From positions 62,001-126,000 of the forward strand of contig QPGO01000119.1 of the NCBI GenBank assembly GCA_008632985.1: a stretch of DNA of 64,000 bases. Reading direction: 5' to 3'. Every line of letters begins with the position of its first letter. Position 1 is the stretch's first letter. Under the pieces are notes generated by a model. It was not told the DNA's origin and did no database searches. It saw only the letters and a program-made list of their open reading frames with translations. This DNA comes from Psammoneis japonica (taxonomy: Eukaryota). Positions 836-50,849 of the stretch are shown here, piece after piece. The position numbers were made by a program, and so were the translations under genes.

Positions 836-1109
836 TTCTACAAGTGCGGGGCAATATTAGATCTGAGTAGATGCTTTTCCGCTAGTGTGTATGTGAGTAG
901 TAGTATGCATTGAGTTCCTTCCTTGAGAGACCACGCTACATAGTGACGCTATTCTACTAGCGTCTTAGGGACCACCGTAAGGTCCTATGCTTTCCCACAT
1001 GTACCCGCATGTAAAAGGCGAGACCTAAATAAATTTCAGAGATGAACACCAGCTGTGCTTCATTCGCAGAAGCACCTTTTACCTTCCACAAGAGCTTTTG
1101 CGGGAGAAG

Positions 1110-1532
1110 TGACCGTGCAAAACTGTTTTTTCTAAATGTTGGGATGTAGAAGTGGTGAAGCCGTGTATGTTGTTTTAGTCGTGGATTCCTTTTTTGGGCT
1201 TAATCTGTGACAGGCACAAATTAATGTCAGGGGTATTTTTTCTCCCAACTCCTCACAGATTAAGTCGGTCCTGTCACAGATTAACTTTTTTTATGGAATC
1301 TTACTTAATCACACCGCTGCCTTTAATCATCCCAAACTGGAGTTTGCTAAAAGTCTCACTCCCTGGCCCCTAACATAAACCCTAAACCCTAACCCTGACC
1401 GTGCAAAACTGTTTTTTCTAAATGTTGGGATGTAGAAGTGGTGAAGCCGTGTATGTTGTTTTAGTCGTGGATTCCTTTTTTGGGCTTAATCTGTGACAGG
1501 CACAAATTAATCTGTCAGGGGTATTTTTTCTC
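1110..1532. repeat. ~135-bp near-identical direct repeat (1110-1244 and 1396-1532) with an internal inverted repeat and a telomere-like CCCTAA tract at the junction
   Basis: TGACCGTGCAAAACTG...GGGGTATTTTTTCTC occurs twice; TTAATCTGTGACAGG (~1200) and CCTGTCACAGATTAA (~1270) are inverted; AAACCCTAAACCCTAACCCT lies at ~1377-1396. Confidence 0.85.
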
Positions 1533-1932
1533 GAATTTATCACAATCATTGTTGTTACGTGAACTTTGTTCGTGCTGATGATGCCACACTCTTCGTGTTC
1601 GAGGCTCAAGTTTAGATCAAGACAACTATCTACCAGTAAACTTAAATTTGTGCCCCTGTTTTAGATCGACGCTAATGCCGGTATGCTGTCAAACAATGCG
1701 TCCTGTACGTGGTAGGTAAACTAGAGCAAACCCATTGATGAAATACCAGAACAACAAATCGCATTGTTGATGCAAACTTCAAGTTATCGTATTGAATTCA
1801 TTATAATAATCATGGAGGATCATTGTAATTGTACATGTTGAATCTTCGGAAAGTATGGTATGATTGTAGATTCAAAGCTACAGTATGCAGAATTTCGCAT
1901 AGAAGCCTAGAATGCATCGAAATTGAAATGAC

Positions 1933-3577
1933 TTAGGAAGCGGCAGCGGCAGCCGCGGCAGGAAGACAACCCCCTTCCTTCACCATGACTTCAAACTCCT
2001 CCAGAATCGCCGGTGCTGCCGGAACGTCCAAGGTCAAGTCGGGTAGAAGCTTGTGCAAGCGACTGAGTCCCTTGGCAACCTGGTACTCCGACACAATGGC
2101 ATTCTTGACCAAGAAGCAAAACAAGGCAGCCATGGCGTCAATAGCCGAGGACGTCTTTTCGGCGTGATCCCGACCGTCCTCTTCCATGGCGATTTTAACG
2201 CCACGTTTCACCAATTCGTGGTGAAAATGCGCCGCTTTCATCTCTCGTACGCACCTAGCGGCTTCATCAAGCTCTCTCGACAAGAGATACTCCTGTGTGA
2301 GGGACAATAGATGCAGGGTTGAAATTAGTGTTCATAAACCACGGCTATCCAACAAACAGATCACCACAATATCAATACGCACCGTGAGCAACTGGTCCAT
2401 TACAGTTTTCAATTCCGCAACAGGCCTTCCATCCCCGGGTCCCCAAATCCTCTCGAGACGGGCCGTACAATGCTCGCGCGACAAGAGACTGACGGCCTTT
2501 TCAATCACGGCATCACCCGGACGATCGTTGTTTTGTTGCGATAAAAAAGCGGGCGGCAAGACCTCATCGACCACCGCCCTGGCCAAGAAGGATCCCACCA
2601 TGATTTTGGCATCGGGAATGTCAATACTCAAGTCATCCAACGATTCCAACAACAGCCCGAATCCCTCCGCCACATTGTCGTCACTGAGCGGTGTCGGATG
2701 AAGACACGTCAAGAGCCGACTCACAAGTTCCCGTTCTCGCGGGCCCTCGTCCAGACTGAGACTTATGGCCCGCTTGACGACTTCGGGATGATACTTGCGG
2801 CACTGTAACTCCTCAATGCTACGAATGACTTCGTCCGCATCGGCCGAATCAAAGTACTCCCGAATGATATCCGCAAGCTGAAGCTTGAACTCGGGCAGCG
2901 TCAACATTGGACCGTAGACGGCCTTTTCCGCGATGGAATCATAGCCGGTTGGATCAACGCCATTGCCGTTTGGAATTTCGCCGTGTTCCGACGAGAGAAT
3001 GTACTTTCCAGACTCGGCCTCTTCCTCGTCGTAGAGCGGGTCGTTCGGGTCTAACGCACCCATGACTGCGTCTTCCGATCCATCCATGTCCTCCTTCCAC
3101 TTGCCCTTGCTAAGAACAAGAAACGATTGTTATTTAATATTCAAACTCATATTGATACAGACAAATCTTATTAAAAACTCACCCATGTCCACCTTGCTTT
3201 TTGTTGCGACTGTCGTATTTTCCCGTTTCCGCCCCATCACTCTTTTTGCGTGTAATGTTTCGACGTGACGATCCCACCTCCTTGACCTTGGTTTCGTGTG
3301 ACATTTCCGCAACTTTAGCCTTGTGTTTTGCCGCCATGGATTGTGCCTGTGAGGAAATGGCACGAACCCCCTCGCCCGTGGGATTGTGGACCTTGCCCTG
3401 CCGCCAAAATGTGAGCAGAACAAGATCATGAGTGCGCGTGACGTGGATTTGAATCATTCGATTGATTCACGCACGCCGAATTCGCACGACGACATGCCAC
3501 CATCATGGATACATACTCACCATGGTCTCCACCGTTACTTCTGGTCGTTTTGAGAACTCTGCCTTGCTTTCCGCCAT
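1933..3577 (-). CDS. PDCD4: Programmed cell death protein 4-like protein with two MA3 (MI) domains; 4 exons (3577-3521, 3397-3183, 3109-2383, 2292-1933)
   Basis: Motifs KKQGGHGKGKW, ALDPNDPLYD, IIREYFDS, VVKRAISLSLD..RERELVSRLL, DLSIDIPDA..FLARAVVDEVLPP, EYLLSRELDEAARC..HFHHELVKR, DLTLDVPAA. Three GT-AG introns restore a single frame. Confidence 0.9.
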
Positions 3578-5635: not shown

Positions 5636-5744
5636 TTTTGCATATATATAGGTGTGACGAGTTTCCAACCTTTTCCAGAATACGGAGAATCTAGTAGAGA
5701 CGATCTTATACAAGGTCAAAAGTCGTTTACGCTTGTAAAGAAGC

Positions 5745-6020
5745 TAGTGAATTTTTTGGGTCGGAACCACTCCCAAGAACGAAATGGTGAAAGTTGTCGA
5801 ACATCGCGATGGATCTTTCACGTACAGTAGGAATCAATGCCGGATGAGATGAATCTCGATAATCTCGCCACCAATTCGAAACACATAGACGACTTGCAAC
5901 TATACCTTACTATTTTTACAAAGCTCAAGCTCTCGTTATCAAGAGTGTTGACCTATAGACTTGGCTGGTAAGGTCCCACTTCACAAAAATCAGCGAATGA
6001 AGAGTAAGGAAAAGGATGTG
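5745..6020 (+). repeat. Diverged direct repeat, copy 1 (copy 2 at ~8897-9157)
   Basis: Shared blocks GGGTCGGAAC, GGTGAAAGTTGTC.AACATCGCGATGGATCTTTCA, AATCTCGCCACCAAT, TTACAAAGCT.AAGCTCTCGTTAT.AAGAGTGTTGA, GAGTAAGGA.AAGGATGT. Confidence 0.8.
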
Positions 6021-6318: not shown

Positions 6319-8145
6319 TCAAACTGGTTTCATCTGGATGTTCCACATTTTCATGTTTGGAAGAATGTCGAGTTGATCGCAATCGAGGAGCTCCAAGCCA
6401 ATGTTCTGAATGCCCTTTTTGAACGAGATTTCGCCCAGTTCGTGGATCCGTTCATCAACCGTTAGCGTACTTGCGACGCGAGATTTCCCAGCATAAAACC
6501 GCACTTTGGTACCACTGGGGACAGACGACGCGATAAGAAAGATCCTGTAGGTCGCGGGACGTAGAACTTCCACCCTTATTTCTTGAATGGCACCAATCTC
6601 TCTGAAATAGGAATATGAAAAGAATACGCCATTGTCACCCCTTACTCGATGTGTGTACTCAGTTTCTACATATGGCTCTTCAACTCCAGGAAAGCCTATC
6701 GTTTGTACCGGCACATTCCAGGCGTGCGGGTCCTTGCGAACATAGTCAACCTTTTCAAAGTACCTCTTGCGCATTTCCAGATATTTCTCGGGACTGGATT
6801 TCTTGAGGTCTTTCTTTTGTTGAGGATCAGTGGCTAGATTGAACAGGTAATAGCTCCCTTTTTCATTCACAAGGACCCATTCCCCCTGTATGTAGACTGA
6901 GTCACGCTTGTCCAGTGGCAGAGAATAATTCTTGGTAAAACGATAATCCCACCCGTCAGGTCCACGAAAGGAGCCTATAGCTCCGGGCTGCGCCGTGAAA
7001 AAATCACGTTCATCTGGCCAAGAGGCCTTTTCTTTCCTTAGGAAACGCCTTAAGCTTCTACCATCTAAGGAAGGTGCGTCTTTCTTCCGCTTGTGGCCGG
7101 CTAACTGAAGAAAGGTAGGGTAGATATCCATGACCAATGCCATGTCGCTCACTTCTTTGGCCTTGAATCTAGCTGGACAGTAAATGCCTAACCGGTTTCG
7201 TATGCCGTTTTCCCATCCTGTTGCTTTCTTGGAGCGAAAACCACTTGGGTTACGTGCAGCCCATTCCGTCTTATTGAGATTGTATATCGTATTTAACGTC
7301 GTGTAAAATCCATTTGGCCTCTTTTCGACCAGACGTGTCTTGGGTGTTGGGCCATTGTCACCGAAAAAAGCAATAACGGTGTTGTCGGACAAACCGTTTC
7401 TTTCCAGTGTCCGCATAATTCGCCCAACTTGGGAGTCCAATTGCTCGAGCATACCGAGAAGCATAGCATACGATTCTGAAATGCCCTGCTCTATGTACTT
7501 CTTCTGTAGTGTTTTACGACAGAGCCAGGGTTCATGCGGCTGCGAATACGGAACGTAGATGAAGAACGGATCGGCCTTGTGCCGCGTGATGAAATCGACA
7601 GCTGCGTCTGTAACGCGCTCTACTTGCCATCCGGGGGCTAACCCAGCGTACGTCCCATTAGGAGAAACGGGTGCATTGACGTGGTCATACCGACCTTTGC
7701 TTCTGTCAAAGTCAGCCGCAATCTCGTACGTTTCGTTGAAACCACGGACGTTAGGCCGTTCGGCATCTGCGGTTCCAAGGTTCCATTTCCCAGTCATGCC
7801 AGTCACGTAGCCGGCATCCTGAAATGCTTCTCCAAGCATGTATTCGTCAGGGTGAGGTGGGTCTCCACCATAGCCGACCGAAGAGGTACCTGTGCGCATA
7901 AAGTTCCGACCCGTCAATAGGGCCGCACGTGTAGGACCGCAAGAGGGTGCAGTATAGAAACGAGTGAACTGAACGCCTTGTTTCATCAACCTGTCCAAAT
8001 TAGGTGTTTGCAATGGAGGCTGTCGGAATCCGTAATCGTCGAATCCCTGGTCGTCTGTCATGATTAGGATGAAGTTGAGTTTCTTCTTTTCGACAGCTTG
8101 AACCTTGGCCGCCATCAGCAGCAGTACACACAAGGCAGCAATCAT
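6319..8145 (-). CDS. Secreted formylglycine-dependent (S1 family) sulfatase / arylsulfatase
   Basis: Signal peptide MIAALCVLLLMAAKVQA; NFILIMTDDQG; CGPTRAALLTGR (CxPxR signature); GYVTGMTGKW; PHEP; GDNG; DIYPT; LFNLATDP. No introns. Confidence 0.92.
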   Translation of the reverse strand: MIAALCVLLLMAAKVQAVEKKKLNFILIMTDDQGFDDYGFRQPPLQTPNLDRLMKQGVQFTRFYTAPSCGPTRAALLTGRNFMRTGTSSVGYGGDPPHPDEYMLGEAFQDAGYVTGMTGKWNLGTADAERPNVRGFNETYEIAADFDRSKGRYDHVNAPVSPNGTYAGLAPGWQVERVTDAAVDFITRHKADPFFIYVPYSQPHEPWLCRKTLQKKYIEQGISESYAMLLGMLEQLDSQVGRIMRTLERNGLSDNTVIAFFGDNGPTPKTRLVEKRPNGFYTTLNTIYNLNKTEWAARNPSGFRSKKATGWENGIRNRLGIYCPARFKAKEVSDMALVMDIYPTFLQLAGHKRKKDAPSLDGRSLRRFLRKEKASWPDERDFFTAQPGAIGSFRGPDGWDYRFTKNYSLPLDKRDSVYIQGEWVLVNEKGSYYLFNLATDPQQKKDLKKSSPEKYLEMRKRYFEKVDYVRKDPHAWNVPVQTIGFPGVEEPYVETEYTHRVRGDNGVFFSYSYFREIGAIQEIRVEVLRPATYRIFLIASSVPSGTKVRFYAGKSRVASTLTVDERIHELGEISFKKGIQNIGLELLDCDQLDILPNMKMWNIQMKPV

Positions 8146-8896
8146 TGCTACGCGTGGGTAAAGAGAGCTGAGAGGGCATATAAAGCAACAATTGTAACGT
8201 GAGGATTGTAGAAGAAGTAATTGATGCCAACAAGCAAAACGAGGCAAGATAATATGGAAACAAACTCAAGTTGCGGACCAACTTACAAAATGTATCTCAG
8301 TGAACAGTGAAGGACGATAGACAGGGATACACCGCAACCCGCAACTGCCTTGCCGATTGCTGTCCCCAAACAAAATTAATAAATGAGCTTGACTTTTGCG
8401 AGATCGAACTACATCGGAGCAAACAAAGGGCTGCTCCCATTTTCGATTTTTGGTGTTGCGTCGAGCAATGACTTATGCTGATAAAATCAATGGGCAGTGA
8501 CAATCAACGCCTCGGTCCTATGACACTAAAGTACTATCGTGATTGGATATTGCCCATATATTCTCATAATAATTATGTATGAATGTCTTCCACAATCATT
8601 TTATTTAAAGGTCTCTTTCTTGTACTGTACTGTACCTTAAGCCAAAATGTCTGTGAGATCAGTTTGACTGGGAACAATAATTCTTTCCAAATTGCCCACC
8701 GATAGTTCCCCCAGTTGAGGCACCGTTGATGACCCAAGCGAATGACTCGACTCTGATGACCGACCATGGCAATCGCGGCCGACCACCAGTGCTTCTTGCT
8801 TCCAACCTTTTCCAAAATGTAGATTTATAGTAGAGATGCTCTTACAGTACAGTCTACAAAAGTTCAATAATCAAAGTCGTGTAGGCTTGTAACCTA

Positions 8897-9789
8897 GCTG
8901 GTGAATTCTTGGGTCGGAACAAAAAGGTGAAAGTTGTCAAACATCGCGATGGATCTTTCAAAATTAACAGGCGTTCAGTACGGAGGAAAAAAGATACCGA
9001 TCTTCAATCTCGCCACCAATCGCAACACGGCGACTTGCCACTCTACCTTACTTCTTACAAAGCTTAAGCTCTCGTTATTAAGAGTGTTGAACCGTTAACT
9101 TGGCTGATGAAGTCCCGCCTAAAAGAATCACAGAATGACGAGTAAGGAGAAGGATGTACCATCTATCCGAAACGAGCGTCGCGGATGAAACCAAGGAAAA
9201 GATGCGGATTAAGCTTGCCACAGACGAAACTCAAAGTGCAGTCGAACACGATGAATTCAGAGGCCTTGAAAAGAATATTTGCTTGATTTTGCATTTTCTC
9301 CTGGATGCTTGCAATCGCAGAAAAGTGGAATTGAAGGAGGAGGGACGGCAGAATCAACAAACACTGATTGGAAGATCAGTACGAGGGTTGCAATGATTTC
9401 TGCGCAAGATAACGCCACGGAACTAGGCAAGATTCGATCTGATATCGACAAGCTGACTGGTTTGAAGTACGACAGAGAAAAGAGGCAATGTGAAGATGAC
9501 TTGAAAGGAGGTATTGTCAGATGTGATGTAGAAGTATGTACATCTCGAACGAGGTTCCGAAAAGGCACGTCAGAAGGAGGCGTGAGTGGTGACAATCGAT
9601 GTGAGTATCAAAACATTTTCCTTCAATGCATGGCGACATGAAAGATGTGCTCCTCGGATTGCTGCGAAAATTGCGTTGATCTATCGAACCTGCCGATATG
9701 GTGATGTCACAAAGAGATTCTGTCTTTCTTGCATTACGTTTTGTGAGGCTTGCATCAACCCAGTCTGCGTGGATTGCGTCACATCATGA
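8897..9789 (+). pseudogene. Fragmented ORF with a Cys-rich C-terminus; its 5' part is the second copy of the 5745-6020 repeat
   Basis: Successive short ORFs 9154-9396, 9279-9641 and 9586-9789 ending FCLSCITFCEACINPVCVDC; several frame breaks. Confidence 0.35.
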
Positions 9790-12469: not shown

Positions 12470-15400
12470 CTTTGCACTGCCGAACTTTGATTTGAACTTT
12501 TGATGGGTCATCAAAAAGGTTTGAGATGCCAATATTTTAGAGGCCAGTCTGGAGCAGCATTGCTGCACTGCATTCTCGCTGCAGAACAGCTGATTTCATC
12601 ATGCTGTGCTGTTCTCTCCACTCAATGCCAATGGGAATCCTGGTGCACACTTTGTCCCAACCAGAAAGTGACTTTCTGTGAGCTCAAGGCCAACTTGCCA
12701 CTCGAAACCATGACAAAAGCAAGCTCCAAACTCTCAAGCTCATTGGCAAGTAAATTGAAGGCCCCATCCCTTCCCATCTTGCAATGTTGCACCATCTGAC
12801 ACATTTTGAGTTGGCAGTTGACAACTTCCTGGGAACATTTCCTGGCAATCTCTCATCACTCAAGCAGATTTTCCACCCCATGCTGCAGTGCAAAATGAGC
12901 TTGACTTTGCACCACAAGTGTCCCAGATCATGTCTGCAATTTTATGAAGCTCCTTGCCTTTGACACTCTGGGGCAAATGCAGCATCACATCATGGCAAGA
13001 TTTCCTCATGCTTTGGGGGTGCACTTCTGAGTCAAGGATGTTGGTCTCGTGTTTGAAGCCCCTTGGGCATTGTGCAGCACACATGACATCAATGGAGTCA
13101 AGCTGAGTTGCGTGGGTGCAAGGGAACTTGTTGTCCTGCTGGACACTTTGGGCCAATTTTGGGGAGAAAGAAAAACAGGCCAACAGCCAGCGTGTCTCAT
13201 GTGTGTGACACCCTCTGATGTCGAGCACATTTTGGAAAGCAATGATGTCATGGCACAAGCTCTGTTGAGTGGCCTGACACCATGCAACACCTTCTCCAAC
13301 AATGGGCCTTTTGCCAAGAAGCTTTGTTCCAGCATCTTCCATCTTTGAGTCTGGCAAATCTGTGCAAAACAAGCACCAAGGAGCACTGCACACTGCAAAG
13401 TGCACAACAATGGTCGAGTGATGCACCTTTTCCCCAAAAAGCACACCAGTCTGAAACAAGCCATGGTGTGATGGGCTTCATGGATTTTTGCATGGGTTTG
13501 TGGTGACCAAAGCAGCAAACCACAGAAGTTGGTTGAAACAGCCAGTGGCTTGCCATTCTTCTCAGGATCTCTGAACACACAGGGGGCTGCTTTTTTCTCA
13601 TCTGGAAAGGGGCAGCTCTGTGCACTCTCATTGTGATTGTTCTGCAAGCTTCAACCAGTCAAAGTCACCACAGCAGCAGCAGCAGCAAATGACTCAACAT
13701 CACTCAGCATCGCGCATGGCTCCTTTCACCTTTGTTTCTAATTTGTTGGCCGATCATGCTCCACACCAAGTTTGCAGAGCAAAGCAGTGGCTTTGGAAGC
13801 TCCTTTTTTGAAAGCTGTTGTGGCTTCATTGCTTTGACAAAGATCGAGTGTGTCTTCTTGAGATTCCTTGCATTGTGATGATGACTGACTGGAGAGAAGA
13901 AGATGCTTGATCTTCATCTTGTTGAACTTCTTGCTTGAGGGACAAAAAATTCTGTTTGACCTCCATTGCCAAAATTGTCCATCAATGTTTCAACAACTGA
14001 GCTGTGCAAATGGTGGCTTTGTGACAGCTCTTTTTTTGAAAGGCGCCCGTGCTGCACTGCTGCCTCAACAAAGATCAAGTTTGTTCAAACAGCATCCTCT
14101 CCAGACTTTGTCCTGTTGGCCAACTGGAGAGGAGAAGACAAAATGTGATGAGATCATCTTCATCATGTTGAGCTTCTTGCATGAGGGGCAAATTCTTTCA
14201 CCCAAGCTCCTCTGCCACCAAGTTCATTGTCAACATTTTTGCAGCTGAGTTGCGCACAGTCTTTTGGACAGAAAAGATCTCACATTGGCATGGCTTGAAA
14301 TTGTGCGAAAAATCATGTGGTGTTTTCAAGAGATTTCGAGGAGAAAAATGGAAAAAAGAGATCATCAAGAAGGTTGGACACATTCACAAAATTGTCGCCA
14401 GCCATCTCCTTTTGCACTGATTTTTGCGCAACACCAAAGTTCTTTTTGTCATGCTGTGGAAAGTTTCACAGAACTCTCAGTGCACAATGTGATGTCATCA
14501 TCCTTGTCACATCATGATGTGCGCTGCTGCCAACAAATCTTCACTCTTGGTGCCTTTAAAAGAGACAAGCACTTCAGAAGAAAAATTGACACCTTTTGAA
14601 ATTTCCAGCACCTCCTTTAAAAATTCTGCATTCTGACAAATTCCAAGAGACCACTGTCTGTGCTCAGCACCCAATGATGGAGTGACAGCACCACAATGGT
14701 GCAAATGCCATTCACAGAGTGCAGAGGAGGTGCACGGTCAAACACAAGCTCCTCGCCAAGAGATTCAGCCACGTGCCAGACTGCCTCCATTGCGCTCAAT
14801 GAACGGCATTTGTGCTGCTGTTGTTTTGTTCACATGGTGTGCACAAATGCTGGTGGGGCTGTCTTTTTTTCCACAAACAATGACCCCACTGTGCGATTGA
14901 GCAAAAAAACATGTCTCATTTGTGCGGGAGAGGTGCTTTCTGCAAACATGTGTGAAATTCTGCAGTGCTCAAAGCTCAAAGTTGCTGGATTTTTAAGTTG
15001 TTTGTAAAAGGTGCTGGAAATGTGAAAGGTGCTGACTTTTTGGTGGTTTTTCAAAAGGGGTGCTGATTTTTAAAGGTGCGAATCACAGCGCCATCCGGTG
15101 CCAGCACGACTGCTTTCTTGTTCCAGCCAGCAGAGACCCGTCCACGACGGCTTGCTGGCCATTGATGACAAAGATGAAGCGACCATCATGTGTTTTGTGT
15201 GTGCTGTCGATGTTCGACGTTGCTTGCAACCGAGATGCTCTCTCTCTCTCTCTCTCTCTCAAACTCTCTTCTACAAAATGTGCAAATGATGTTGCATCAA
15301 CGATCGACGACTCCACTGGTGCTGTGCCGACTCCCTCCTCTCGAGCTGATGGCGAGTGCACGGGAAAAAGACACCCAAACGCATTGACGTGCAGACATTG

Positions 15401-15471
15401 TGGATTGATGTTTGCTGGGCCTCATCGCATCGCACTCATCACTCATCACTCATCGCATCAGCATAAAGCCG
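12470..15471. mobile_element. Degenerate repeat-derived block, depleted of TpA and CpG (possibly a non-LTR ORF1-like relic on the minus strand)
   Basis: About 7 TpA in 12540-15010, almost all in TTA/TAA. Dense overlapping Cys/His/Gln-rich ORFs on both strands; abuts the copia insertion. Family assignment is weak. Confidence 0.55.
15238..15260. repeat. (CT)n microsatellite
   Basis: CTCTCTCTCTCTCTCTCTCTCTC read directly. Confidence 0.9.
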
Positions 15472-15476
15472 CAGTC

Positions 15477-15823
15477 TGTGGGAAAGCAGCCAGAATTCTA
15501 AGATTCGTCTGCACTTTCAGTGACCAAAAGCTGCAATTGCGATGCAACAATCAATCAGTGACTTCATTGCACCAAAAGTTGAGAGGTGATGATCAGTGCG
15601 TTAGAAAGATCATGAGCAGTTTTTATGAGCAGATGCAGCTGCCATCTAAAGGAAACGCGAAGTTAAACAAGCGCGAAGCTGGGAACAAACATCGCATTCG
15701 TGACTCGGCTTCCGCGGGATTCGAGACTGAGCATCGCACATGGGGTTCGAATCTTGGATCTCTGATTTGAATCGTGGAGGTCCGATGTTGTTGTAAAAAC
15801 ATGCAAATGTGAGTGTTGTCACA
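15477..15823 (-). repeat. 3' LTR
   Basis: TGTGGGAAAG...TTGTCACA; 16 substitutions versus the 5' LTR; PPT (plus-strand CTCCCTTC) at 15824-15831. Confidence 0.97.
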
Positions 15824-18800
15824 CTCCCTTCAACAATGTCGGGTGGAATGATGACTCGAAAACGTCTTGCCACTTAAGGAGCGATTTCCTGTGTTTAACG
15901 AAGAGATTCTGTGGCAGAGGTTTGGTGAAAATGTCTGCAATCTGATCCGCCGCATCAATTGGTGGGATTGATGTGAGACCTTTGCGAACATGGTCTTTAA
16001 AGTGGTGGAGAGTGAGGTTGAAGTGTTTTGTCCGAGGACGCATCTTGGGCAATCTCGCGATCTCCAATGCTCCAGAATTGTCTTCAAAAGCCTCACAATG
16101 TACGACTGGTGTCTTGGAAGGGACATTATGACCGTGATCCATAAATTCTTGAATGAGGTTCATAATTGGGATGGCGCTTCGAAGACTTTCCGAAAGAGCG
16201 ATAAATTCAGCTTCAGCAGTGCTGAGCGCGATCTGAGTCTGTAGCTTGGACGTCCAGACAATCGGACATCCTGCATGGGTGATGACAAACCCAGTTCGAG
16301 ATTTGGAAGTGCCGACGTCATTGGGTGCAGTCAGCTTATTCCAATTGCCCACAAAGTCCGCGTCGGCGTGAACTTCAAGGGACTTGTCCGTTGAGGGCTG
16401 TGGCACAATGCCTTCAGTTCTGGTTGACCTTAGGTGCTTACAGAGCCACAGTGCGGCTTCACCGTGAGAAACCTTGGGATCGGAAGAAAAGCGTGCGACT
16501 TGGTGCACCGCGCAAGCGACATCCGGTCGAGTGCTCTTCTCCAGAAAATTGAGCTTGCCGATGATGGATCGGCAATGAAAGCTCCCTTGGAAAGCAGGCT
16601 CACTCACATGCCTGTGGAGGATCTTGGAGGAAGGAGCAGGAGCAGACTTGTCTGGCAGTCTCTTTGGAACATTGGCCATCTCCAGCATCTGATTGACAAG
16701 GTGAGGTTGGGCAAGTTTCGTTCTGCCATCTGGCAGTGTCTCGACGTTGACACCGAGATAGTCGTCCAGAGTGCCTTGATCATCAACATCAAAATTCTCA
16801 TCTCTGATGTCCTGTGTCGCCTTGTCAATGGCAGACTTGTCAGGGGATGCAAAGATGCCGTCATCGACATGATGAGTGAAAATGACATTGCCACGAAAAC
16901 ACAGGCACTCATCAACCGCCGATTGTACGAAACCAATCCTTGACAATCCATCACGCAAGTGTTCTTGCCATGCTCTCCCTGCTTGCTTCTGTCCATGTAA
17001 GTTCTTGAGCAACTTCAGAACATGAGTCTTGCCATTGCCACATTTTGTTTCAATTCCTGCAGGCAACTCCATGCACATGTCACATTCGATGTCGGCATGC
17101 GGATGCGCCAGAACGAAGTCGACTTGGCGTGCATGCCACTTCTTAAGAATGGCAATGATCAGCAGGAGCCGGACAGTGAACCAGAAGACCACGGCAGAGC
17201 AGGTCTGGAAGTGGTTGACAGCATGCTCTTGCTTTCCGCCGTGCACATTAAGTCGGGACTTCCATTTGTAGACGGCTTGGGTCTTGATGTCTCTTTTGCG
17301 CTTCATGGACCACACCGAAGGGAGAACATCAACATCGTCAGGTACGTTCTCTCTTGGAATGAGCATCCAATGTTTCCTTTCAACATGATCATTGACCTCC
17401 TTAACACAGGCCTTGACAAATTCGTCTCTGTCAGGTTCACGCACAGCCTGATCAAAGTGCATGGTGTCGGGGTCCGAGCTCGCCAGAAAAGAGACAGGTG
17501 AGTCCATGTCGTCCTGCAGTTTGTAATCATCCTCGTGCATCGCATCACAATGTGCCTCTGCCTCTGCATTGTAGGAGACAATGCCTTGAGCCCGTTGTAG
17601 TTGGCTCTCGCGCATCCTTTCGGTCGGGCGTCGTTGTCGGCCGGACCTGCTGGTGCTGGGCTGACCCACAGTGCGCTGTGGCTCAGATGGTGCGTCAGAA
17701 TCATCTGGAGGCATGTGTGGCATTTCGTCATCCGGTTGGGCATTGTCAAATGAGTCATCAGTGGTGGACGTATCAGTGGGATGCAGCAGCTGAGACGGGA
17801 CATCCGAATTCGGCTCAGGTGGTTCCGTTGTGGTGGGGACTGATCCCTCAACCGGTGCGTCACTTGATTTCCCAAAGATGTTGAAAGCACTCCTTGTCTT
17901 GAGTTGTCTGAAACCTGCAATGCCTTGCCATTGTGAGAATGTAGGAGGATTCCCAGCAGATGGACGAACGGTCTCAAAGAAGTCGTCAAATTGCACGTGA
18001 AATTGCGGCGACACGAGTCCGGTCTGCAAATTCAAAACCAAGGTAACTGAACCTGCGTGTCTTGTTGATGGTCCCAAATTGATTCCTGACCTTGCCCTTG
18101 GGTCCCACTTAGGCAGCCTACCTCCTCCCTGCAACCGATTGTGCAAGGCGTAGACGGGACAGCCGAAGGCATGGTGTTGTTTGAGATTGGGCTGGACCTT
18201 GACGGACGAGAAACGTTCCAGCGGAGAAGAACCGTCCTCGTGATTCGGCAAGTGATTCTTGATCTCGTTTGAGTTCCTGAGAGCGCTTGGCCATAAGTTC
18301 AACTCAACAGCCGTTGGCCATCTCACTTTTGCATGCAGGAGTTGCTTCCGAGATTGCTCTTGGAGGTCCCTTGTTCTTTTCTCCGCGATGCCGTTTTGGA
18401 AGTGGGCGTTGACCCCACAACAGGATGTTGTTTGCTGTTGCTTCTTGACGTCTTGCATGAAAGCATTGTCAGCAAATCTTCCATTGTCGGCGTGGCAGTG
18501 TTGAATGTGGACGTGCATCCGGCGTGCGAATGCCTCGAAAGCGTGCTTGGCTTCGAGCGTCTCGGCTGAGGCAAGTCCTTTCTGCAAATGTGTGCATCCC
18601 AATCCGCTGAAATGATCAACAAAAATTGTCGCTGCTCGATGCCTTTGTTTCGCAGGTCTCCCTTTGAGCTGTGGGATCAATCCAGGAGCAGGACTCTCGA
18701 GCTGGTCGACGGATGCGGCTTCTCCAGGCGAAGTTGCCAAGTGGATTCGTCGGTTCCGCTTGGACTTGGAGCGCCATGGTCGTTTCGTCATGGCACCGTG

Positions 18801-19940
18801 TGGGCAGCCGGCACATTTTGGGTTGTGTGCCTTTGTAAGGCGTTTTGGTAGAATGCCTGGGGCGGCCAACAGCTTTGTCATTTTGAATGACATGTGGCCC
18901 AGGCGGCAATGCCAACGCAATGGTTCACCCTGGTCATCTGTGGCAGCAAGGGCGTCATCATTTGGCATGATGTTGATGGGTTCCGGCAAGTCCTGCTGCA
19001 CCTCCGGTGTCGTGAAATCCCTTGGGTTTTCCTCGTCTGAGTCTGAACGACTTGCTCCGTCTGTTGGCTCAAATGAGACAGGAGCATCCTCATCAGTGGT
19101 GTTGCGTGCGTCTTGCGTCTCGGAAGGACGTGTCTCGGATGGACTTCTGAAGACGTCTGTGTCAATTGCAGCCTCGTCATCATTCGCAATGCTCTCGTCG
19201 TCTGGTGGTATGATGTGAGCTTGACAGGCCACGTGCTCGATAGTTTCGATGTCGGTTTGTTCTTCGACAGCGGCTGCAAAGGTCCGGCATTTGTTGGAAC
19301 CGGGTGCGGAGCGCATCTTGGCGACATTAGAGTTGGCGGACCATGGAATCAGGCGATGGCACTTGCGCTGGTCCCACATCAGCAACAGTCCGTCGTCCCC
19401 AGTCCAAGGTGCGGTTCCGTGAGGCTCTGGCGTGTGGTCATTAGCTTGCTGGCTCCATTGCTGCGGGCAGAGAAGACAATGAGGTAAGTCGGGTGCATAG
19501 AGTGCGTCTCGAATTTTAATGCTGTGCACTTGTCCCATGTCGTCCTCAATTGCCCACTGCACTGTTCCTTCTCCCTCAGCACGCAAGTGGCCCTTGACAC
19601 CGAGTGCCACTTTGTTGGATTTGCGAAGAGGACCAATGAAGTGTGCCTCGTCGTTGGACATGGTGCAGGAAGAATGCGAGTCGACACCGATTGCGAATGA
19701 GTCCGAATCGTAAGTGGGCTCCGTTCGCTCGGGACGGTGTGGTGTGGTTGAGTTGTACGCTCCAACCGTCTTGCATCGCGTAATGACACAGTGAGCCTTC
19801 TTGGTGGCCACTCTGGAGCGGTGACCTGGCCTCGTCGACGTATGACACCGTGCGCAGCACCCTCGTCGTTGGCCGTCGCTGGTGAGTCTTAACTCGTCTT
19901 GTGCCTGGTTCAGCCAGGATGTGTGAGATGACCCACTCAC
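15819..19940 (-). CDS. Copia pol polyprotein (protease, integrase, reverse transcriptase, RNase H); frame open but probably inactivated by missense changes
   Basis: IGVDSHSS (PR); WHCRLGH...C..C (GAG-pre-integrase/zinc finger); VDQLES, HADNG, QNGIAEK (DDE); RQVDF, KNLHGQKQAG, HVDDGI (RT); HADADF, STAEAEF, EDNSGA, ADIFTKPL (RH). Confidence 0.95.
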   Translation of the reverse strand: MSGSSHTSWLNQAQDELRLTSDGQRRGCCARCHTSTRPGHRSRVATKKAHCVITRCKTVGAYNSTTPHRPERTEPTYDSDSFAIGVDSHSSCTMSNDEAHFIGPLRKSNKVALGVKGHLRAEGEGTVQWAIEDDMGQVHSIKIRDALYAPDLPHCLLCPQQWSQQANDHTPEPHGTAPWTGDDGLLLMWDQRKCHRLIPWSANSNVAKMRSAPGSNKCRTFAAAVEEQTDIETIEHVACQAHIIPPDDESIANDDEAAIDTDVFRSPSETRPSETQDARNTTDEDAPVSFEPTDGASRSDSDEENPRDFTTPEVQQDLPEPINIMPNDDALAATDDQGEPLRWHCRLGHMSFKMTKLLAAPGILPKRLTKAHNPKCAGCPHGAMTKRPWRSKSKRNRRIHLATSPGEAASVDQLESPAPGLIPQLKGRPAKQRHRAATIFVDHFSGLGCTHLQKGLASAETLEAKHAFEAFARRMHVHIQHCHADNGRFADNAFMQDVKKQQQTTSCCGVNAHFQNGIAEKRTRDLQEQSRKQLLHAKVRWPTAVELNLWPSALRNSNEIKNHLPNHEDGSSPLERFSSVKVQPNLKQHHAFGCPVYALHNRLQGGGRLPKWDPRARSGINLGPSTRHAGSVTLVLNLQTGLVSPQFHVQFDDFFETVRPSAGNPPTFSQWQGIAGFRQLKTRSAFNIFGKSSDAPVEGSVPTTTEPPEPNSDVPSQLLHPTDTSTTDDSFDNAQPDDEMPHMPPDDSDAPSEPQRTVGQPSTSRSGRQRRPTERMRESQLQRAQGIVSYNAEAEAHCDAMHEDDYKLQDDMDSPVSFLASSDPDTMHFDQAVREPDRDEFVKACVKEVNDHVERKHWMLIPRENVPDDVDVLPSVWSMKRKRDIKTQAVYKWKSRLNVHGGKQEHAVNHFQTCSAVVFWFTVRLLLIIAILKKWHARQVDFVLAHPHADIECDMCMELPAGIETKCGNGKTHVLKLLKNLHGQKQAGRAWQEHLRDGLSRIGFVQSAVDECLCFRGNVIFTHHVDDGIFASPDKSAIDKATQDIRDENFDVDDQGTLDDYLGVNVETLPDGRTKLAQPHLVNQMLEMANVPKRLPDKSAPAPSSKILHRHVSEPAFQGSFHCRSIIGKLNFLEKSTRPDVACAVHQVARFSSDPKVSHGEAALWLCKHLRSTRTEGIVPQPSTDKSLEVHADADFVGNWNKLTAPNDVGTSKSRTGFVITHAGCPIVWTSKLQTQIALSTAEAEFIALSESLRSAIPIMNLIQEFMDHGHNVPSKTPVVHCEAFEDNSGALEIARLPKMRPRTKHFNLTLHHFKDHVRKGLTSIPPIDAADQIADIFTKPLPQNLFVKHRKSLLKWQDVFESSFHPTLLKGV

Positions 19941-20127
19941 CCAGCGTCATTGCGGCATGTGACAGGCGCTTACACTTTTCTGAAGGAAGGGACAGCATCA
20001 TGAACAGCAGTGTGATCCAGATCGGTGCTGCACATTTCATGACGCCAGCGACCGCCATCAGGAGCACTGACACAGTGACAGCCATCTGCAAGGACAGCAG
20101 CAGTGTCAGAGTGAACCTGCAGAGCAG

Positions 20128-21633
20128 TCACTCTTGATCCACTTCGTTTAGGATGGTGGAGATAGCACTTGCGAAGGAGACTTTCTTGTCCGACGTGTCT
20201 GTGGATGGAGCAGACTGTTGCTTGCGGAGTCTACAGCCTTGGTTGCCCGGATCATCAGGTGAGTGTATGACCCAAGCAGTGTGACATGGGCACCAGTGAC
20301 AGTCGCGATTGTTGACGTGCTTGTGACAGTGCTGATGACCGTTCACTGTCTTCTTAGGAGCGTCCTCCTTGGGGCGGGACTTTCTTCCAGGCTTCGTCCG
20401 CTTTCTGTCTCTGACGTGGAGTGGTCTTGGTCTTCCTTGACCGTGTGCTTCGTTCCTTGGTTGAACCAGCCTTGGCCTTCAAAGCTTTAGACAGCTGAAG
20501 GTTCTGATCCTTGATGGAGTCTACCTTGGCTGTAAGCGCGACGATTTGCTCTTCAGCCGGTGACAGTGCTCCCCACTTCTTCTCGCGCTTGAGGTTAGTG
20601 TGTTTGTTCAGTGCCAACGTCATGATTTGCGTCGGCGTGAATTCCTCACCGTCGTCGCACCTGTCCTTGTGTGACATGATGTGCTTGACGAATGCTTCGT
20701 CAGCAGCTGCGGCGCATCCTTTGAATGGGTTCATGACAAGGTCGTCGCACTGCTCTCCTCTAGCTTGGAGTCCGTCAACGTTGAGCTTGGCGCACTTGTT
20801 GAACTCTTCGATGTCCGAGTTGACAGCCGCCATGTGCGCATCCAGGCTTGACAAGTTCTCGCGGAAGTAGTTGGTGGTGGAGCGTGTGTCAACGATGGCC
20901 TTTTGCGTAAGTGGCTTGAAGAATAGTGTGCCGATTTGATTTCCATTGATCGCATGGGAATCTATCTCAGCCAACATCTTGTCTCTTGCTTCTTCTGTAA
21001 GGGATTGAGAGATCGCCTCAGCCATCTGCACATTGTTCTGTGCTTGTCGCGTAGGCAGATTCGCGAAGGTGTTCGCGTGGGTTCTGACATCCTGTAGAGT
21101 GAGCAGTCCGTACTCGGAGATAAGATCTCGTGGAGTTCCATTCGCGTCGGGAATGGCAAGCATGTCTCCTGCCCCTGTTTTCCATCCTGCCTCGGCAGCT
21201 CGTTGACTGAGTGTCTCACAAAACCGTTTGAGACCTTCTGAATCGCCGTTAAACTCGTGTGGCAGCGGTGCAGCAGCGGCGTTCCAAAGCTTGAGGCCTT
21301 GCGATGTGCCGCAGTCGATGAAGTTGTTGGGACGGTGTTGACCTGGAGTCAACGCGAAGATCGGCAGTGGTGGCACAGGTGCCAATGGTGGTCCACCTGG
21401 CGGGACTCCACCTGGTGGGACTCCACCTCCGCCTCCTCCTCCACCTCCTCCACCACCTCCTCCTGGAGGTACACCGGGAGGAACGACTGGGGAGGTACAG
21501 GAGCAACTGGAGCGGCTGCAGGAGCAGGTGCTGTTGCCGGAGCAGCAGCAGTGGCAGGAGCTGCAGCGGGTGCAGCAGCGGGAGCTGCAACAGAGGCAGC
21601 TAGAGCAGCCGCGGTTCGTGTCTGCGTGACCAT
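20128..21633 (-). CDS. Copia gag, in three frames (21349-21633, 20354-21385, 20128-20346)
   Basis: ATG 21633, 75 bp from the 5' LTR, with an Ala/Pro-rich N-terminus; FALTPG...LISEYG.LT...RQAQNN..M; ALTAKV coiled coil; WCPCHTAWVIH...C knuckle-like motif; ends DQE-TGA. Confidence 0.85.
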
Positions 21634-21707
21634 GGTAACAGCAGAGTAAAATAGAATCGAGAGCTTAAGATCGATTGACTTAACTTGTAGGTTTCGCAGA
21701 GGAAGCG

Positions 21708-22054
21708 TGTGGGAAAGTAGCCAGAATTCTAAGACTCGTCTGCACTTTCAGTGATTAAAAGCTGCAATTGCGATACAACAATCAATCAGTAACTTTATTG
21801 TACCAAAAGTTGAGAGGTGACAATCAGTACGTTAGAAAGATTATGAGCAGTTTTTATGAGCAGATGCAGCTGCCATCTAAAGGAAACGCGAAGTTAAACA
21901 AGCGCGAAGCTAGGAACAAACATCGCATTCGTGACTCGGCTTCCGCGGGATTCGAGACTGAGCATCGCACATGGGGTTCGAATCTTGGATCTCTGATTTG
22001 AATCGTGGAGGTCCGATGTTGTTGTAAAAACATGCAAATATGAATATTGTCACA
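21708..22054 (-). repeat. 5' LTR
   Basis: Colinear 347-bp copy of 15477-15823, followed by the CAGTC TSD. Confidence 0.97.
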
Positions 22055-22143
22055 CAGTCCTCCGATCTCTGATCACCGAACTAATTATTGTTCTGCCACA
22101 TCTTCGAACTGCTCCTGCGGCACAGATAAACCTGCGAAACACC

Positions 22144-29106: not shown

Positions 29107-29795
29107 ACACTTACTTTGTTGTTGCATTCATTTAACAACAACGATTCTAGCTAACAATGCATAATGAAATAAATGAAGTTCTCTCTAGTAAACGCCATGT
29201 AACAACTATGGCATGTCGAAATTCAAAAGCACTGGAACATAACATGATGCACTCCCGATCCCGAGTCAAGAAAGCCACGCCGCTTTTCAAGTTTGCAATT
29301 TCTGCTGACTGCTTATGGAATTCCGATTCCTTATCTTTTCTCCCCCATCCCTAGTACAGTAAGGTTATAATGCTGCGGAGAAGGTTGGGGACGCCATTGA
29401 AGTTTTTCTCAAAGCATTTGCCCGCGAACCCTAGTTTCTTCGCGACATACTGTAGAATGACATTCGAGCTGTGCTGCTGAAGATGTCAAAGCATCAACAC
29501 GGAAGGCATCGCAATTGGTCCTCTGCTCTATTCTAGATGCGAGACGATATTTGCTGTGTCTTGATCAAGTCTCGCGAGACCTATGTAGTACTTTACAATG
29601 CCATGGTGGACTGAATACATGATGTTGCGGACGCCAACTTTTTATGATAAATTGTGGGCGAATGTGCTTTCTTGTGTTCGCATGATGACGTGGCTATTTT
29701 TGAAATCTTCAGGGCTGAAGATCGCTGAACCAGCATCCCTCCATCATCATCGCGTCAGTGAACTTCATCATCATCTTGAATGCTTGCTGCGTTGC

Positions 29796-31581
29796 TATTG
29801 CTGTTTGAGGTTAAAATGTCACAGGGTTCGAGAGAGAGAGGTGTCTTCTTTTTTTTTTTTCCTTCGACAACACCTTTCCGGGTTCCCCTCAACAGCCACG
29901 TAGAATCGTACACAAAATAAGTACTAGAATTGATGCAACCATCAAAACACACCGATATCAACCATGAGGACCGCCGCTGCTCCGCCGCCAAGCGGCACGC
30001 AACTAACCAACCCGAACACAATGATCGTGCATCTAGTCGAAGTATGAAGCGTTCTGCCATCAATCTGGGCTCGTATGATTCTGAAGAGGGCTCAGAAACC
30101 CACGAGAAACCGAGGGTCGCAACTGCGAACTTCTCATTCACTTCGACAAACCGTGTTTGTCTGAAGCAAAAAGGATCATAGACGAACCAAAGCCCACTCT
30201 AATCTACTGAAAGTTTCAGTTGCACCAGAAATACTACAGGAGCTTTTGACATCTTTCTTGGAGCCAGCTCAGAGCTCAGAAGGACCCAAACTACTCTGTT
30301 CGTGTCACCTCAAAGACAACTCCAATTTTCGAAGTAGAGTATGATCTCTCCCGTTCCATGTCAAACGGATTGGTGAGTACGAACCAAAATTCTCTCTATT
30401 TTTTCTACACTAATTGCTTGCACTTACCTTCGACCTGTTCATTTTGTAATGCAGAGCAGGGAGGAGGATATGTCGCAACTCTCGCACTCGGACCGCGATG
30501 AGGCGACAACGACGAGGAAAACGGAGATTTTCACGTTGACAAGGATTTTTCATGACATAATCAAACATGCTGCAACACATACTAAACTGAAGAAGCACTA
30601 TGCGTAGGACAAGAAGACATACTTTAGGGTAACTATTATATTACTAGGCACTCTAGATGCTACTCGAGACCAACTATTTACTACTCGAGATGATACCGCT
30701 CGAGACTAGGGCCCTACAGTAGCTAGACGATACCACTTGAGACTATATTATACAGTATTTACTACCGTACGATACTTGAGACGATAACACTCGAGACAAT
30801 ATTTATTGCTCGAGACGACACCACTCGAGATACGATGTTCACTGCTCGAGAAGACACCACTCGAGATTAGATATTAACTCGAGACAACACAATACCACTC
30901 GAGATGACACCCCAACCACCAACCTTGAACACTCTAATTCTTCATCCCCGGCACCCCTCCTTTTCGATACCGCTTCGCTGCTACAGTAGGTATGCCGGTA
31001 GGCCGGGAGTTACTGACAGCAACGCCCGCCCCACAATGCAAGTCTTGCCAATCCGCCTGACTACCCTCAAGTTCTCCATGGCGACGAAGGTGTGCTTCAC
31101 ACACAAAAAGCATTTTTTCGACTGGTGTCGAATGGTAGTTCTCCATAAAAGAGATAGTGCTTGTACCAACGTCGGAGTTGACGTTCACTACTAGAAGTAG
31201 CTAGTGCGAAATATCCTTGCACCCGCCCTGTCTCAGCAGTCTCAGCACGGCGGCGGCAAGGCTTGCCGTGCCTGCCACCAGTTGAACGTGATCAACAATG
31301 TATTCAATAGCATCACTTTGAGTCGTTCGGGATGCCTTTCCAAAAGCAATCCCTACTCTAGAGAGAGCAATGTGATGAAAAACGCGAACAAACGGACCGG
31401 CTTCATTGCCATTGTTTTTGATCTTGTGGTGGCTGTATCTCAAATTCTAGTACTTATTTTGTGTACGATTCTACGTGGCTGTTGAGGGGAACCCGGAAAG
31501 GTGTTGTCGAAGGAAAAAAAAAAAAGAGAGAGACACCTCTCTCTCTCGAACCCTGTGACATTTTTACCTCAAACAGCAATA
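29796..31581. mobile_element. ~1.8-kb segment bounded by ~135-bp inverted repeats (putative non-autonomous foldback/MULE-like element)
   Basis: 29796-29930 is the near-perfect reverse complement of 31443-31581. No transposase and no clear TSD; internal CTCGAG array. Confidence 0.6.
30655..30905. repeat. Degenerate tandem array of ACTCGAGA-containing units (about a dozen)
   Basis: Repeated (ATACC)ACTCGAGA(C/T) and ATTTACTACTCGAGA variants at irregular 15-35 bp spacing. Confidence 0.8.
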
Positions 31582-31677
31582 ACATGGCATTGATGTTGAG
31601 GGTTGTTGTAGTCCTCGTTCCACATCCTCTTGAAATTGTTAGCTGAACGCTCTTATACTATATACTCGCACATTATC

Positions 31678-33885: not shown

Positions 33886-34481
33886 TGTTGCCTTCACTCA
33901 AAGAGTAACCACACAAACAGCAACAACGAGAAAAAGTGCCGATCCAGATCGATCCGGATCTTGAATCTGAAATCACATCCGGACGACGGACGCGCTCTCA
34001 GGGCGGGACGACGACTCGATCGACTCTTCCTTCAACGCACTCGCCAGAACTGCGTCATCGTACAACAGCACTATCACACAGACTGTACAACGTCAATGTT
34101 CAACTTCCAATGATTCTTATTGGACGAACGCAAAGAACAAATCATAGACATTACAAGGCTCTGATGTTTTATTCGTCTTCACTATCAAAAGCGTGACATT
34201 ATGTTAACGTACGTATTGAAGATTAATATTAATTTCTCTTGAGTTTTACTATCAGATTTTCCTCTTTCGCTTGACACCAATATCGCGAAATTTTTACGAA
34301 ACAGCTGTAACTCCCGCCATTTTTTGTCCAAATCCGAAGCCCGAAGCTCACCAGATCTTCCCACCATTCACTCTCTCACAAACAAGTGCAACAACAAGTA
34401 GCCCTACTCTAGAGTAGCAGGAGGCATAAAAGCCATTGACAATCTTGAAAAGAAAGCCCATCGATTTTATTGTTCTTCAAT

Positions 34482-50349: not shown

Positions 50350-50849
50350 GTGGTTAGTTATCTGCGAGAGCGGAGTAACAAGAAAGAAGAAAAATGATTC
50401 CAGTGAGAAGATGTCGTCGTAGCGGACCGAGAAAGATGGCGGTCCCTTCCAAGTGAAGGAGATCACGTGCATTGACTCACTTTGTTATTCTTGGTTATAG
50501 GCATTTTGTGAGAACAATACAAGCATTGCGCCTCTGTGCTTTTGGGTCGTGATTCAGGAATGCGATATGCGATCGCGTTTTCGAAATATGGAGGAGTCGT
50601 CGCGAGACAATCGCAGACACTCCCTATCAAACATATGTCTTCTGTACTTCGATCACAGCTTTTACAATGTGAAAACAACAAAGACCGACATACGGGCAAA
50701 GGACAGAAGCAATCACAATACGATGGGGAGTGAAAGTTGATGGCTCACACGCGACCAAAACGACGCGGCAAGCGCAAAACAAGAATCAACACGAATCATC
50801 AATCACGACTTGCGAACAGCCAAGACACAACAACTTCGGATCACAGCGC

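Follow-up and report, generated by a model that had tools for sequence, protein, structure and literature searches.

Probable regional TpA-specific A-to-G hypermutation across a Ty1/copia insertion in a diatom-like genome

What kind of process leaves the two long terminal repeats (LTRs) of one retrotransposon differing exclusively by transitions, most of them at TpA dinucleotides, and on what does it act? This question is raised by a Ty1/copia element on the minus strand of a 64,000-nucleotide stretch of contig QPGO01000119.1 (the window, to which all positions refer), where it occupies positions 15477 to 22054. Our answer, to which we give a probability of roughly 70%, is that the locus records chromosomal, TpA-specific A-to-G hypermutation of the kind reported for Bigelowiella natans, acting regionally in a diatom-like genome.

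The element was delimited by repeat search, pairwise alignment and a script. Its parts are as follows, with dinucleotide levels given as ratios of observed to expected counts (O/E):

15472-15476, no strand: left copy of the target-site duplication CAGTC, 5 bp
15477-15823, minus strand: LTR A, the 3' LTR and hypermutated copy, 347 bp; 12 TpA-context and 2 ApA-context changes, 6 TpA remain
15819-19940, minus strand: pol open frame, 1373 amino acids, with protease-like barrel, integrase and RVT_2; TpA O/E 0.19-0.20
20354-21664, minus strand: presumed gag, 436 amino acids from stop to stop in a frame other than that of pol, named by position only
21481-21707, minus strand: 5' leader adjoining LTR B, spared; TpA O/E 0.83
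21708-22054, minus strand: LTR B, the 5' LTR and nearly unmutated, 347 bp; 1 TpA-context and 1 ApA-context change, 17 TpA
22055-22059, no strand: right copy of the target-site duplication CAGTC, 5 bp

Both LTRs end in TG...CA, and the element is one intact insertion of a minus-strand Ty1/copia retrotransposon; because it lies on the minus strand, LTR A is the 3' LTR and LTR B the 5' LTR. The Pfam profiles of pol follow one another in the order PF07727 (E 8.7e-29), PF13976, PF25597 and PF22936, with the integrase upstream of RVT_2, and the other pol domains are GAG-pre-integrase, SH3-like and beta-barrel; the presumed gag had no Pfam match. The pol stop codon is located 2 bases inside LTR A, and a purine run, GAAGGGAG (minus strand) at 15824-15831, immediately upstream of the 3' LTR, fits a polypurine tract in its position. 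No second copy of the element was found within the window. In searches of protein collections the closest full-length relatives reached at most 58-62% identity, and shorter proteins at most 70%; copia relatives are plentiful in marine and freshwater assemblies, and one named match comes from the diatom Fragilaria crotonensis.

The two LTRs differ at 16 positions, all of them transitions, with no gaps and no transversions. When the A/T state is taken as ancestral, as in all context counts given here, 13 of the 36 A/T positions in 5'-TA context have changed, against 3 of 66 in AA context and none of 101 in CA or GA context (Fisher p = 8e-9), and all three AA-context changes read aAt. All 17 CpGs are common to both LTRs (17/17). 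The 13 changes on 36 TpA copies thus face 0 on 34 CpG copies, as the original prediction of a rate above CpG decay had it, and by simple arithmetic TpA-context sites changed about 37 times more often than all other LTR sites. The changes are distributed unequally between the two repeats: G/C stands in LTR A and A/T in LTR B at 14 sites and the opposite at 2 (binomial p = 0.004), with 6 TpA left in LTR A and 17 in LTR B. Within LTR A the two strand types are balanced (8:6), and at one place GATGATC in LTR A faces GACAATC in LTR B. The observation from which the original prediction started, namely 16 differences that are all transitions, 13 at TpA, three at AAT and none at a CpG, was re-derived by alignment, and the contexts that it quoted are present.

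Taken alone, the LTR pair is compatible with either direction of change, and it would also suit an ordinary process resembling fungal repeat-induced point mutation (RIP) or of the 5-methylcytosine type, in which TG/CA is ancestral and C changed to T at CpA in LTR B and in most copies; CpA>TpA is the classical RIP context, and most sibling copies carry A/T at several sites. The direction was therefore read from outgroup proteins, sibling copies and a third copy of the LTR. Tyrosine codons are TAY; Tyr to Cys corresponds to TA>TG, and Tyr to His to TA>CA. Tyrosine makes up 0.58% of the polyprotein, compared with 3.26 +/- 0.64% in 38 outgroups of 45-62% identity. In an alignment of 58 relatives, 4 of the 26 columns conserved for Tyr are kept in this copy, with Cys in 10 and His in 8, whereas other conserved columns are kept in 442 of 494 cases; conserved Asn columns are kept in 16 of 16 cases and conserved Lys columns in 22 of 23. 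A codon-level test with 55 relatives, from which three Tyr-poor ones were left out, showed that 71 of 516 conserved residues are lost, and that 38 of these losses are undone by one step (TG>TA in 21, CA>TA in 17); the remaining ones are explained by other transitions (4), by transversions (23, mostly conservative) or by two steps (6). Hence, 38 of the 42 transitions that explain losses of conserved residues are A>G after T or T>C before A, with the two types balanced on the sense strand of pol (21 TA>TG and 17 TA>CA). Outgroups of 42-62% identity hold Tyr, Ile, Leu and Val where this copy holds Cys/His, Thr/Val, Pro and Ala. The pol frame is open despite at least 38 TpA-type replacements at conserved residues, one of which, Y1024H, removes the tyrosine of the Y-x-DD motif of the reverse transcriptase (RT).

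Sibling copies point the same way. They were taken from contigs of three runs of one sample, aligned to 15000-21707, none of them coming from run X3, and the variants considered are the 40 listed of 927, 36 of which lie in the element; the 16 LTR sites are not among these. Contigs lie 49-81 deep over the flank, compared with 594-3500 over the element, and of the 1206 aligned contigs of run X1, 9 leave the LTR edge into different flanks; the element must therefore be present in tens of copies. Among the 36 element variants listed, 29 are transition sites with G/C here and A/T elsewhere, where the A/T state forms a TpA in 24 of 29 cases; 6 have the reverse pattern, none of them in TpA context, and one is a transversion. 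The outgroups side with the other copies at 15 of the 17 non-synonymous TpA-context sites among those listed. For example, other copies have Tyr in place of His982 and Cys482 of this copy and Leu in place of Pro340, as do 55, 55 and 50 of the 58 outgroups, respectively. A variant from run X2 is the TpA-rich, unmutated form, differing from this copy by 103 C>T and G>A, 14 A>G and T>C, and 4 transversions. Finally, a third copy has CAACTTTGTTG following 15558; the corresponding sequence is TGACTTCATTG in LTR A and TAACTTTATTG in LTR B. At two dinucleotides this gives CA..TG for the third copy, TG..CA for LTR A and TA..TA for LTR B. The presence of TA, TG and CA at the same two dinucleotides is as expected if an ancestral TA changed independently on opposite strands.

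As judged from these sequence comparisons, the direction is TpA to TpG or CpA, the reverse of RIP. In this the original prediction was right: outgroups and siblings have TA, not TG/CA, as the ancestral state, change at TpA lies far above that at ApA (13/36 against 3/66), and both strands are affected (21:17 in pol, 8:6 in LTR A). A process running from C to T is practically untenable, as it is contradicted by the polarity of the outgroups and by a pol frame that is open while lacking the Y-x-DD tyrosine of the RT. The TpA levels contradict it too. The family norm is a median TpA O/E of 0.53 for pol in 79 environmental relatives, 2 of which are at or below 0.30; the level of LTR B (0.59) fits this norm, and that of LTR A (0.24) does not.

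The shape of the affected region tells what the process acts on. Along the locus, TpA O/E is 0.05 in the block flanking the element on the left, 0.24 in LTR A and 0.19, 0.20 and 0.29 in the interior; past about 21470 it rises to 0.83 for the 5' leader, and LTR B and the right flank have 0.59 and 0.63. The depleted tract ends about 240 bp before LTR B. Comparison of the O/E of the tract with the family norm of 0.53 implies that about 60-65% of its TpAs were converted, which matches the 12 of 18 in LTR A. Four further TpA-poor blocks are present in the window, so that the boundaries and blocks are:

12540-15476, no strand: left-flank block abutting LTR A; TpA 10, O/E 0.05; CpG O/E 0.32; CpA+TpG O/E 1.74; change point at 12540
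21470, no strand: right boundary of the TpA-depleted tract, inside the element; likelihood change point with O/E 0.21 to its left and 0.64 to its right
41951-44750, no strand: TpA-poor, CpG-poor block; TpA 12 against 179 expected; CpG O/E 0.38
50701-55350, no strand: TpA-poor, CpG-poor block; TpA 10 against 310 expected; CpG O/E 0.20
57301-60500, no strand: TpA-poor, CpG-poor block; TpA 13 against 216 expected; CpG O/E 0.31
62901-64000, no strand: TpA-poor block leaving the window end; TpA 3 against 70 expected; CpG O/E 0.42

The five blocks span 1.1-4.65 kb, are made of complex sequence and hold 3-7% of the expected TpA; 50701-55350 contains a stretch of 2697 bp (50719-53416) without any TpA. 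Their CpG O/E of 0.20-0.42 contrasts with about 0.8 in the whole window and in the element. They have no recognisable gene or transposon content: none of their 103 frames gave a Pfam match above the curated cut-off (three matches below it were treated as noise), a tblastn search with 240 copia proteins found no copia similarity in them (only 15834-20067 matched), and block-against-block comparison of DNA and protein found no mutual similarity. The host genes of the window are ordinary, with 1.4-4.9% Tyr and a TpA O/E of 0.45-0.70. Contig depth over 15000-15447, in the left flank, is at the single-copy level.

Targeting looks regional, or domain-based, and not duplication-based, because the tract omits one LTR, takes in sequence at single-copy depth and stops inside the element. 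The original prediction of a process aimed at repeats is not supported as it stands: the tract ignores the borders of the element, and the other repeat pairs of the window, which are located in normal DNA, have ordinary mismatch spectra. It should be noted that the insertion site is the right edge of an older block, which, with ten block edges in about 57 kb, is by our own arithmetic a coincidence of about 1 in 100. The coincidence hints at one of two things: that the process spread into the new element out of the block, or that integration is directed at such borders. In the single-copy flank, the assembly and run X1 differ at four positions (15106, 15107, 15314 and 15317), none of which is in TpA context, and these differences therefore say nothing on ongoing activity.

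An assembly or polishing artefact, or else selection against UpA in RNA, is a very improbable source of the pattern. It is true that the individual LTR differences are those of the assembly, since in the read contigs every copy of the family stacks up on the LTR. Against an artefact, the context-specific pattern spans 9 kb and four other blocks, and contigs assembled independently from one sample show like variation among copies. Selection against UpA cannot account for the loss of catalytic residues or for the depletion of a non-coding flank.

The same evidence bears on when the changes were made. The alternative is editing before integration, on RNA or on particle cDNA in the manner of ADAR, ADAT or APOBEC, after which gene conversion restored the leader and LTR B, the TpA-free flank being coincidental. 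Editing gradients occur on retroviral minus-strand DNA, and the present depletion resembles them in that it loses a little strength toward the primer-binding end (0.29 against 0.19-0.20) and does not extend into the leader; moreover, the tens of sibling copies are possible donors for conversion. Yet editing of RNA or of the minus strand gives one type of change, and the strands are balanced, 21:17 in pol and 8:6 in LTR A. The LTRs should match at integration but differ 14:2, LTR A is as heavily changed as the interior, and the same purge is seen in blocks without any sign of a retroelement, at the edge of one of which the element is inserted. We therefore regard editing before integration as unlikely. 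Deamination of minus-strand cDNA that alters the 3' LTR only was rejected, since both strand types are present in LTR A. A transcription-coupled model was also considered and kept as a possibility: the spared leader would be transcribed, and the changed U5 of LTR A should not be, although the transcription start was placed by guess from an A/T-rich box. The balanced strands, the unequal LTRs and the purge of DNA without retroelement features argue instead for hypermutation of chromosomal DNA, and the intact target-site duplication together with the 14:2 asymmetry suggests that it acted after integration. The original prediction of change after integration is supported by these two observations, although the 5' end may have undergone gene conversion.

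Which agent would make such changes? Error-prone repair synthesis at WA motifs by a Pol-eta-like polymerase in a repair-prone chromatin domain, with no deaminase involved, would account for the three changes in AA context, and a WA context with mainly A>G is the known error signature of Pol-eta, which the original prediction put forward as one candidate agent beside a TadA-like deaminase. We consider this improbable. The preference for TA over AA in the LTRs is extreme (13/36 against 3/66), conserved Asn (16/16) and Lys (22/23) columns are kept, the 16 LTR differences include no transversion, a C>T phase that would accompany the changes is not seen, and the purge is near complete, to 0-5% of the expected TpA over kilobases. 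A sequence-specific adenine deaminase would fit better, given the strong bias for TA over AA, LTR differences made up of transitions only and a purge that left almost no TpA. As the original prediction had supposed, the causal gene appears to lie outside the window: a Pfam scan of 210 window frames found no deaminase or Y-family polymerase domain.

The TpAs that survive give a hint at the substrate rule. Among the 48 that are left in the blocks, compared with 1747 TpAs in normal DNA, TTAA makes up 31% (4% in normal DNA), ATAT 0% (7%), ATAC 2% (14%) and GTAC 2% (8%). In an exploratory analysis, most classes are fitted by an additive model in which the 3' neighbour is preferred in the order T>C>G>A. 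Such a preference would make the codons for Tyr (T-A-Y) the best substrate, in line with the loss of 22 of the 26 conserved tyrosines. Either the process is largely but not strictly TpA-directed, or the three AAT changes are background mutations.

The same signature is found in some relatives of the element. Four of 240 public relatives are Tyr-starved with raised His and Cys, namely P0229 (0 Tyr in 728 amino acids), P0020, P0145 and P0003, and in P0003, P0020 and P0034 conserved Tyr is replaced by Cys or His; P0003 is strand-skewed (13 Cys against 2 His). A 4773-bp contig from a microbial-mat metagenome (L072) has a TpA O/E of 0-0.3 almost throughout, and 0.47 in its last 400-bp window. At aligned positions where the query has Tyr, this contig keeps Tyr in 3% and has Cys in 17% and His in 12%, compared with 36-74% Tyr kept and 0-6% Cys in eleven control loci.

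How does this compare with known systems? According to the available text of a preprint (Mettrop et al., bioRxiv 10.64898/2026.01.13.699255), integrated viral DNA of B. natans undergoes TpA-specific AT>GC hypermutation: two integrated viral regions mutate about 1000-fold faster, 230 of 231 changes are A>G or T>C, all placed on TpA by the authors, 124 TpA-depleted clusters exist, RT and DDE domains are enriched among TpA-poor coding sequences, and an ADAT2-like protein is proposed as the agent. Shared with that system, as far as the preprint describes it, are the near-exclusive A>G/T>C changes, the conversion of TpA to TpG or CpA on either strand, the delimited regions and the inclusion of single-copy DNA, so that the process at our locus appears, by analogy, to be of the same kind. 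The host there is a chlorarachniophyte and here a diatom-like stramenopile; the target there is integrated viral DNA and here an LTR retrotransposon; and the evidence there, by the same account, is a mutation-accumulation experiment and here an LTR pair, outgroups and sibling copies. In contrast to what the preprint text reports, the tract described here extends over the border of the element and leaves out its 5' LTR, CpG is scarce in the blocks and 3 of the 16 LTR changes are at AAT; a bias by the 3' neighbour in the order T>C>G>A is suggested here as well. The CpA+TpG O/E of the element (1.38-1.49) is under the cut-off of 1.52 used in the preprint, and that of the left block (1.74) is above it.

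Fungal RIP resembles our case in that dense, context-specific transitions on both strands inactivate a transposon and that a YpR dinucleotide is the unit of change. However, RIP makes TpA from CpA, whereas here TpA is destroyed and depleted, and no stop codons are created; RIP acts on duplications over the length of the repeat, whereas here one LTR is spared, a flank at single-copy depth is included and the tract ends inside the element. ADAT2/ADAT3 and TadA deaminate A after U or T, at tRNA position 34, which follows U33. One member of this group, amphioxus BjADAT2, is reported to be active on DNA (PMC10354150); the link to ADAT2/TadA is put forward by analogy, as a hypothesis only. Clustered deaminase-type transitions fixed in genomic retroelements are also left by APOBEC3, which turns C into U on cDNA, and by ADAR, which turns A into I on double-stranded RNA (PMC4866542), and the 5'-U preference of ADAR mentioned in the B. 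natans preprint (10.64898/2026.01.13.699255) resembles the 5'-T neighbour here. Those enzymes act before integration on one strand type and leave the LTRs alike, whereas here both strands are hit, the LTRs differ and DNA other than retroelements is affected. The Ty1/copia elements of diatoms (CoDi groups, PMC2806351) resemble this one in their RVT_2, integrase and GAG-pre-integrase domains, with 347-bp LTRs and a 5-bp duplication in the present case; this copy differs from them in being Tyr-starved and TpA-depleted, and the terms "hypermut-", "deaminat-" and "LTR identity" are absent from that paper.

The original prediction had known of no description of such a process. The signature itself was already described in 2026 in another lineage, by the B. 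natans preprint as far as its text is available, but no report of TpA hypermutation in diatoms was found in the literature, a search that left subscription journals mostly outside and so is not proof of absence. A paper on diatom DNA methyltransferases (DNMTs), in the text accessible, treats RIP only as a function of fungal relatives of DNMT4. What this locus adds is a diatom host, a retrotransposon target, timing by an LTR pair, a border-crossing tract that spares the 5' LTR, the loss of CpG and a candidate 3'-neighbour rule.

The assignment of the host rests on a gene of the diatom-type silicon transporter at 34449-36328 (plus strand), where PF03842 matches four consecutive open frames over profile positions 3-452 of 513 (E 2.5e-58 to 9.1e-28 and 6.6e-60), so that short introns or frame changes are implied. 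Together with the Fragilaria protein among the copia relatives, this gene identifies the host as a diatom or a related silicifier; other silicifying stramenopiles are possible.

Several points weigh against hypermutation of the B. natans kind as the explanation. TpA is scarcer in the flank block than in the element itself (0.05 against about 0.2), and the insertion site falls on the edge of this block, a combination that no simple model fits. A live alternative is that an unmutated copy served as donor in a gene conversion of the leader and LTR B; this could yield both the boundary at 21470 and the LTR asymmetry, and it would weaken the timing argument. The available text of the preprint reports changes at TpA only, unlike the LTRs here, with three of 16 in AA context, and it does not mention a CpG-poverty such as that of the blocks. 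The copia element is selfish DNA, but the blocks carry no feature that would mark them as foreign. Among the 17 polarised non-synonymous sites there are two, both in a poorly conserved stretch, at which the state of this copy is favoured as ancestral. For the 16 LTR sites themselves, polarity had to be inferred: it comes from the pattern of the domain, from the coding region and from a single loose-end contig.

What the comparisons do show is the direction, the TpA context, the strand symmetry, the shape of the domain and a rate above both CpG decay and background. In our preferred explanation, an A after T becomes G on either DNA strand, turning TpA into TpG or CpA, within delimited domains and not on repeats as such. 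One domain extends from 12540 to about 21470 and comprises an older, nearly purged flank, the 3' LTR and almost the whole interior of a recent insertion, which has lost about two thirds of its TpAs, with the 5' leader and 5' LTR outside. As changes at TpA create no stop codons, the pol frame stays open, while catalytic and structural tyrosines turn into Cys or His and the copy is probably inactivated. The agent might, speculatively, be a DNA adenine deaminase of the ADAT2/TadA type that is recruited to silenced chromatin, perhaps guided by antisense RNA.

Regarding antisense RNA, contigs of run X2 that are 95-99% like the element lack pieces of 70-113 bp within 17065-21495 of the window (plus strand). 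On the plus strand, which is antisense to pol, 8 of the 13 listed joints are GT..AG, with donors such as GTAAGT and GTGAGT, and four more of those listed become, as we read their flanks, GT..AG or GC..AG after a shift of 1-3 bases. This looks like spliced antisense RNA of the element family, if X2 is an RNA run, as we guess, and antisense transcripts could be a source of double-stranded RNA for targeting. A wider and distinctly tentative idea, which we consider doubtful at present, is that of a defence present in both Rhizaria and Stramenopiles, and so perhaps ancient within the SAR group (stramenopiles, alveolates and rhizarians), in which antisense-guided, chromatin-domain-targeted DNA adenine deamination would purge silenced selfish or foreign DNA to TpA-free blocks of kilobases, following the rule 5'-T-A and then T or C, spreading across element borders from a nucleation site and stopping before an active 5' LTR.

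Some other features of the window may be mentioned. Between the blocks 50701-55350 and 57301-60500 lies a WD40-repeat gene (55686-57215, minus strand) with a somewhat low TpA O/E (0.45) and a normal Tyr content (2.2%), possibly a host gene that selection keeps intact within a hypermutated domain. An inverted repeat of about 160 bp with 92.5% identity (29793-29947 and 31424-31584; 4 transitions and 2 transversions, an ordinary spectrum) encloses about 1.5 kb and could represent DNA transposon ends. A sulfatase gene at 6319-8265 lies between the two copies of a direct repeat of about 360 bp with 72% identity (5663-6019 and 8800-9157; 30 transitions and 30 transversions, also ordinary). Tandem arrays are present at 62049-62419, with periods of 18/36/72 bp and about 20 copies inside the open frame 61011-62537, and at 541-674, with periods of 15/45 bp.

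The hypermutation known until 2026 to serve genome defence (RIP, APOBEC) ran from C to T, and its A>G counterpart on chromosomal DNA has been reported once so far, in the preprint text on one chlorarachniophyte. If our view is true, the signature reaches a second, ecologically dominant lineage, retrotransposons join its targets, and the LTR pair provides a natural clock for its timing. In that lineage CRISPR knock-outs have been made, namely in Phaeodactylum tricornutum (PMC9998398). Dating by LTR divergence would be badly inflated, as all 16 differences found here may stem from the TpA process, and long open frames in copies that are probably dead would mislead gene callers and estimates of transposon activity. 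TpA-free blocks, in turn, could be a simple genome-wide marker of silenced foreign DNA.

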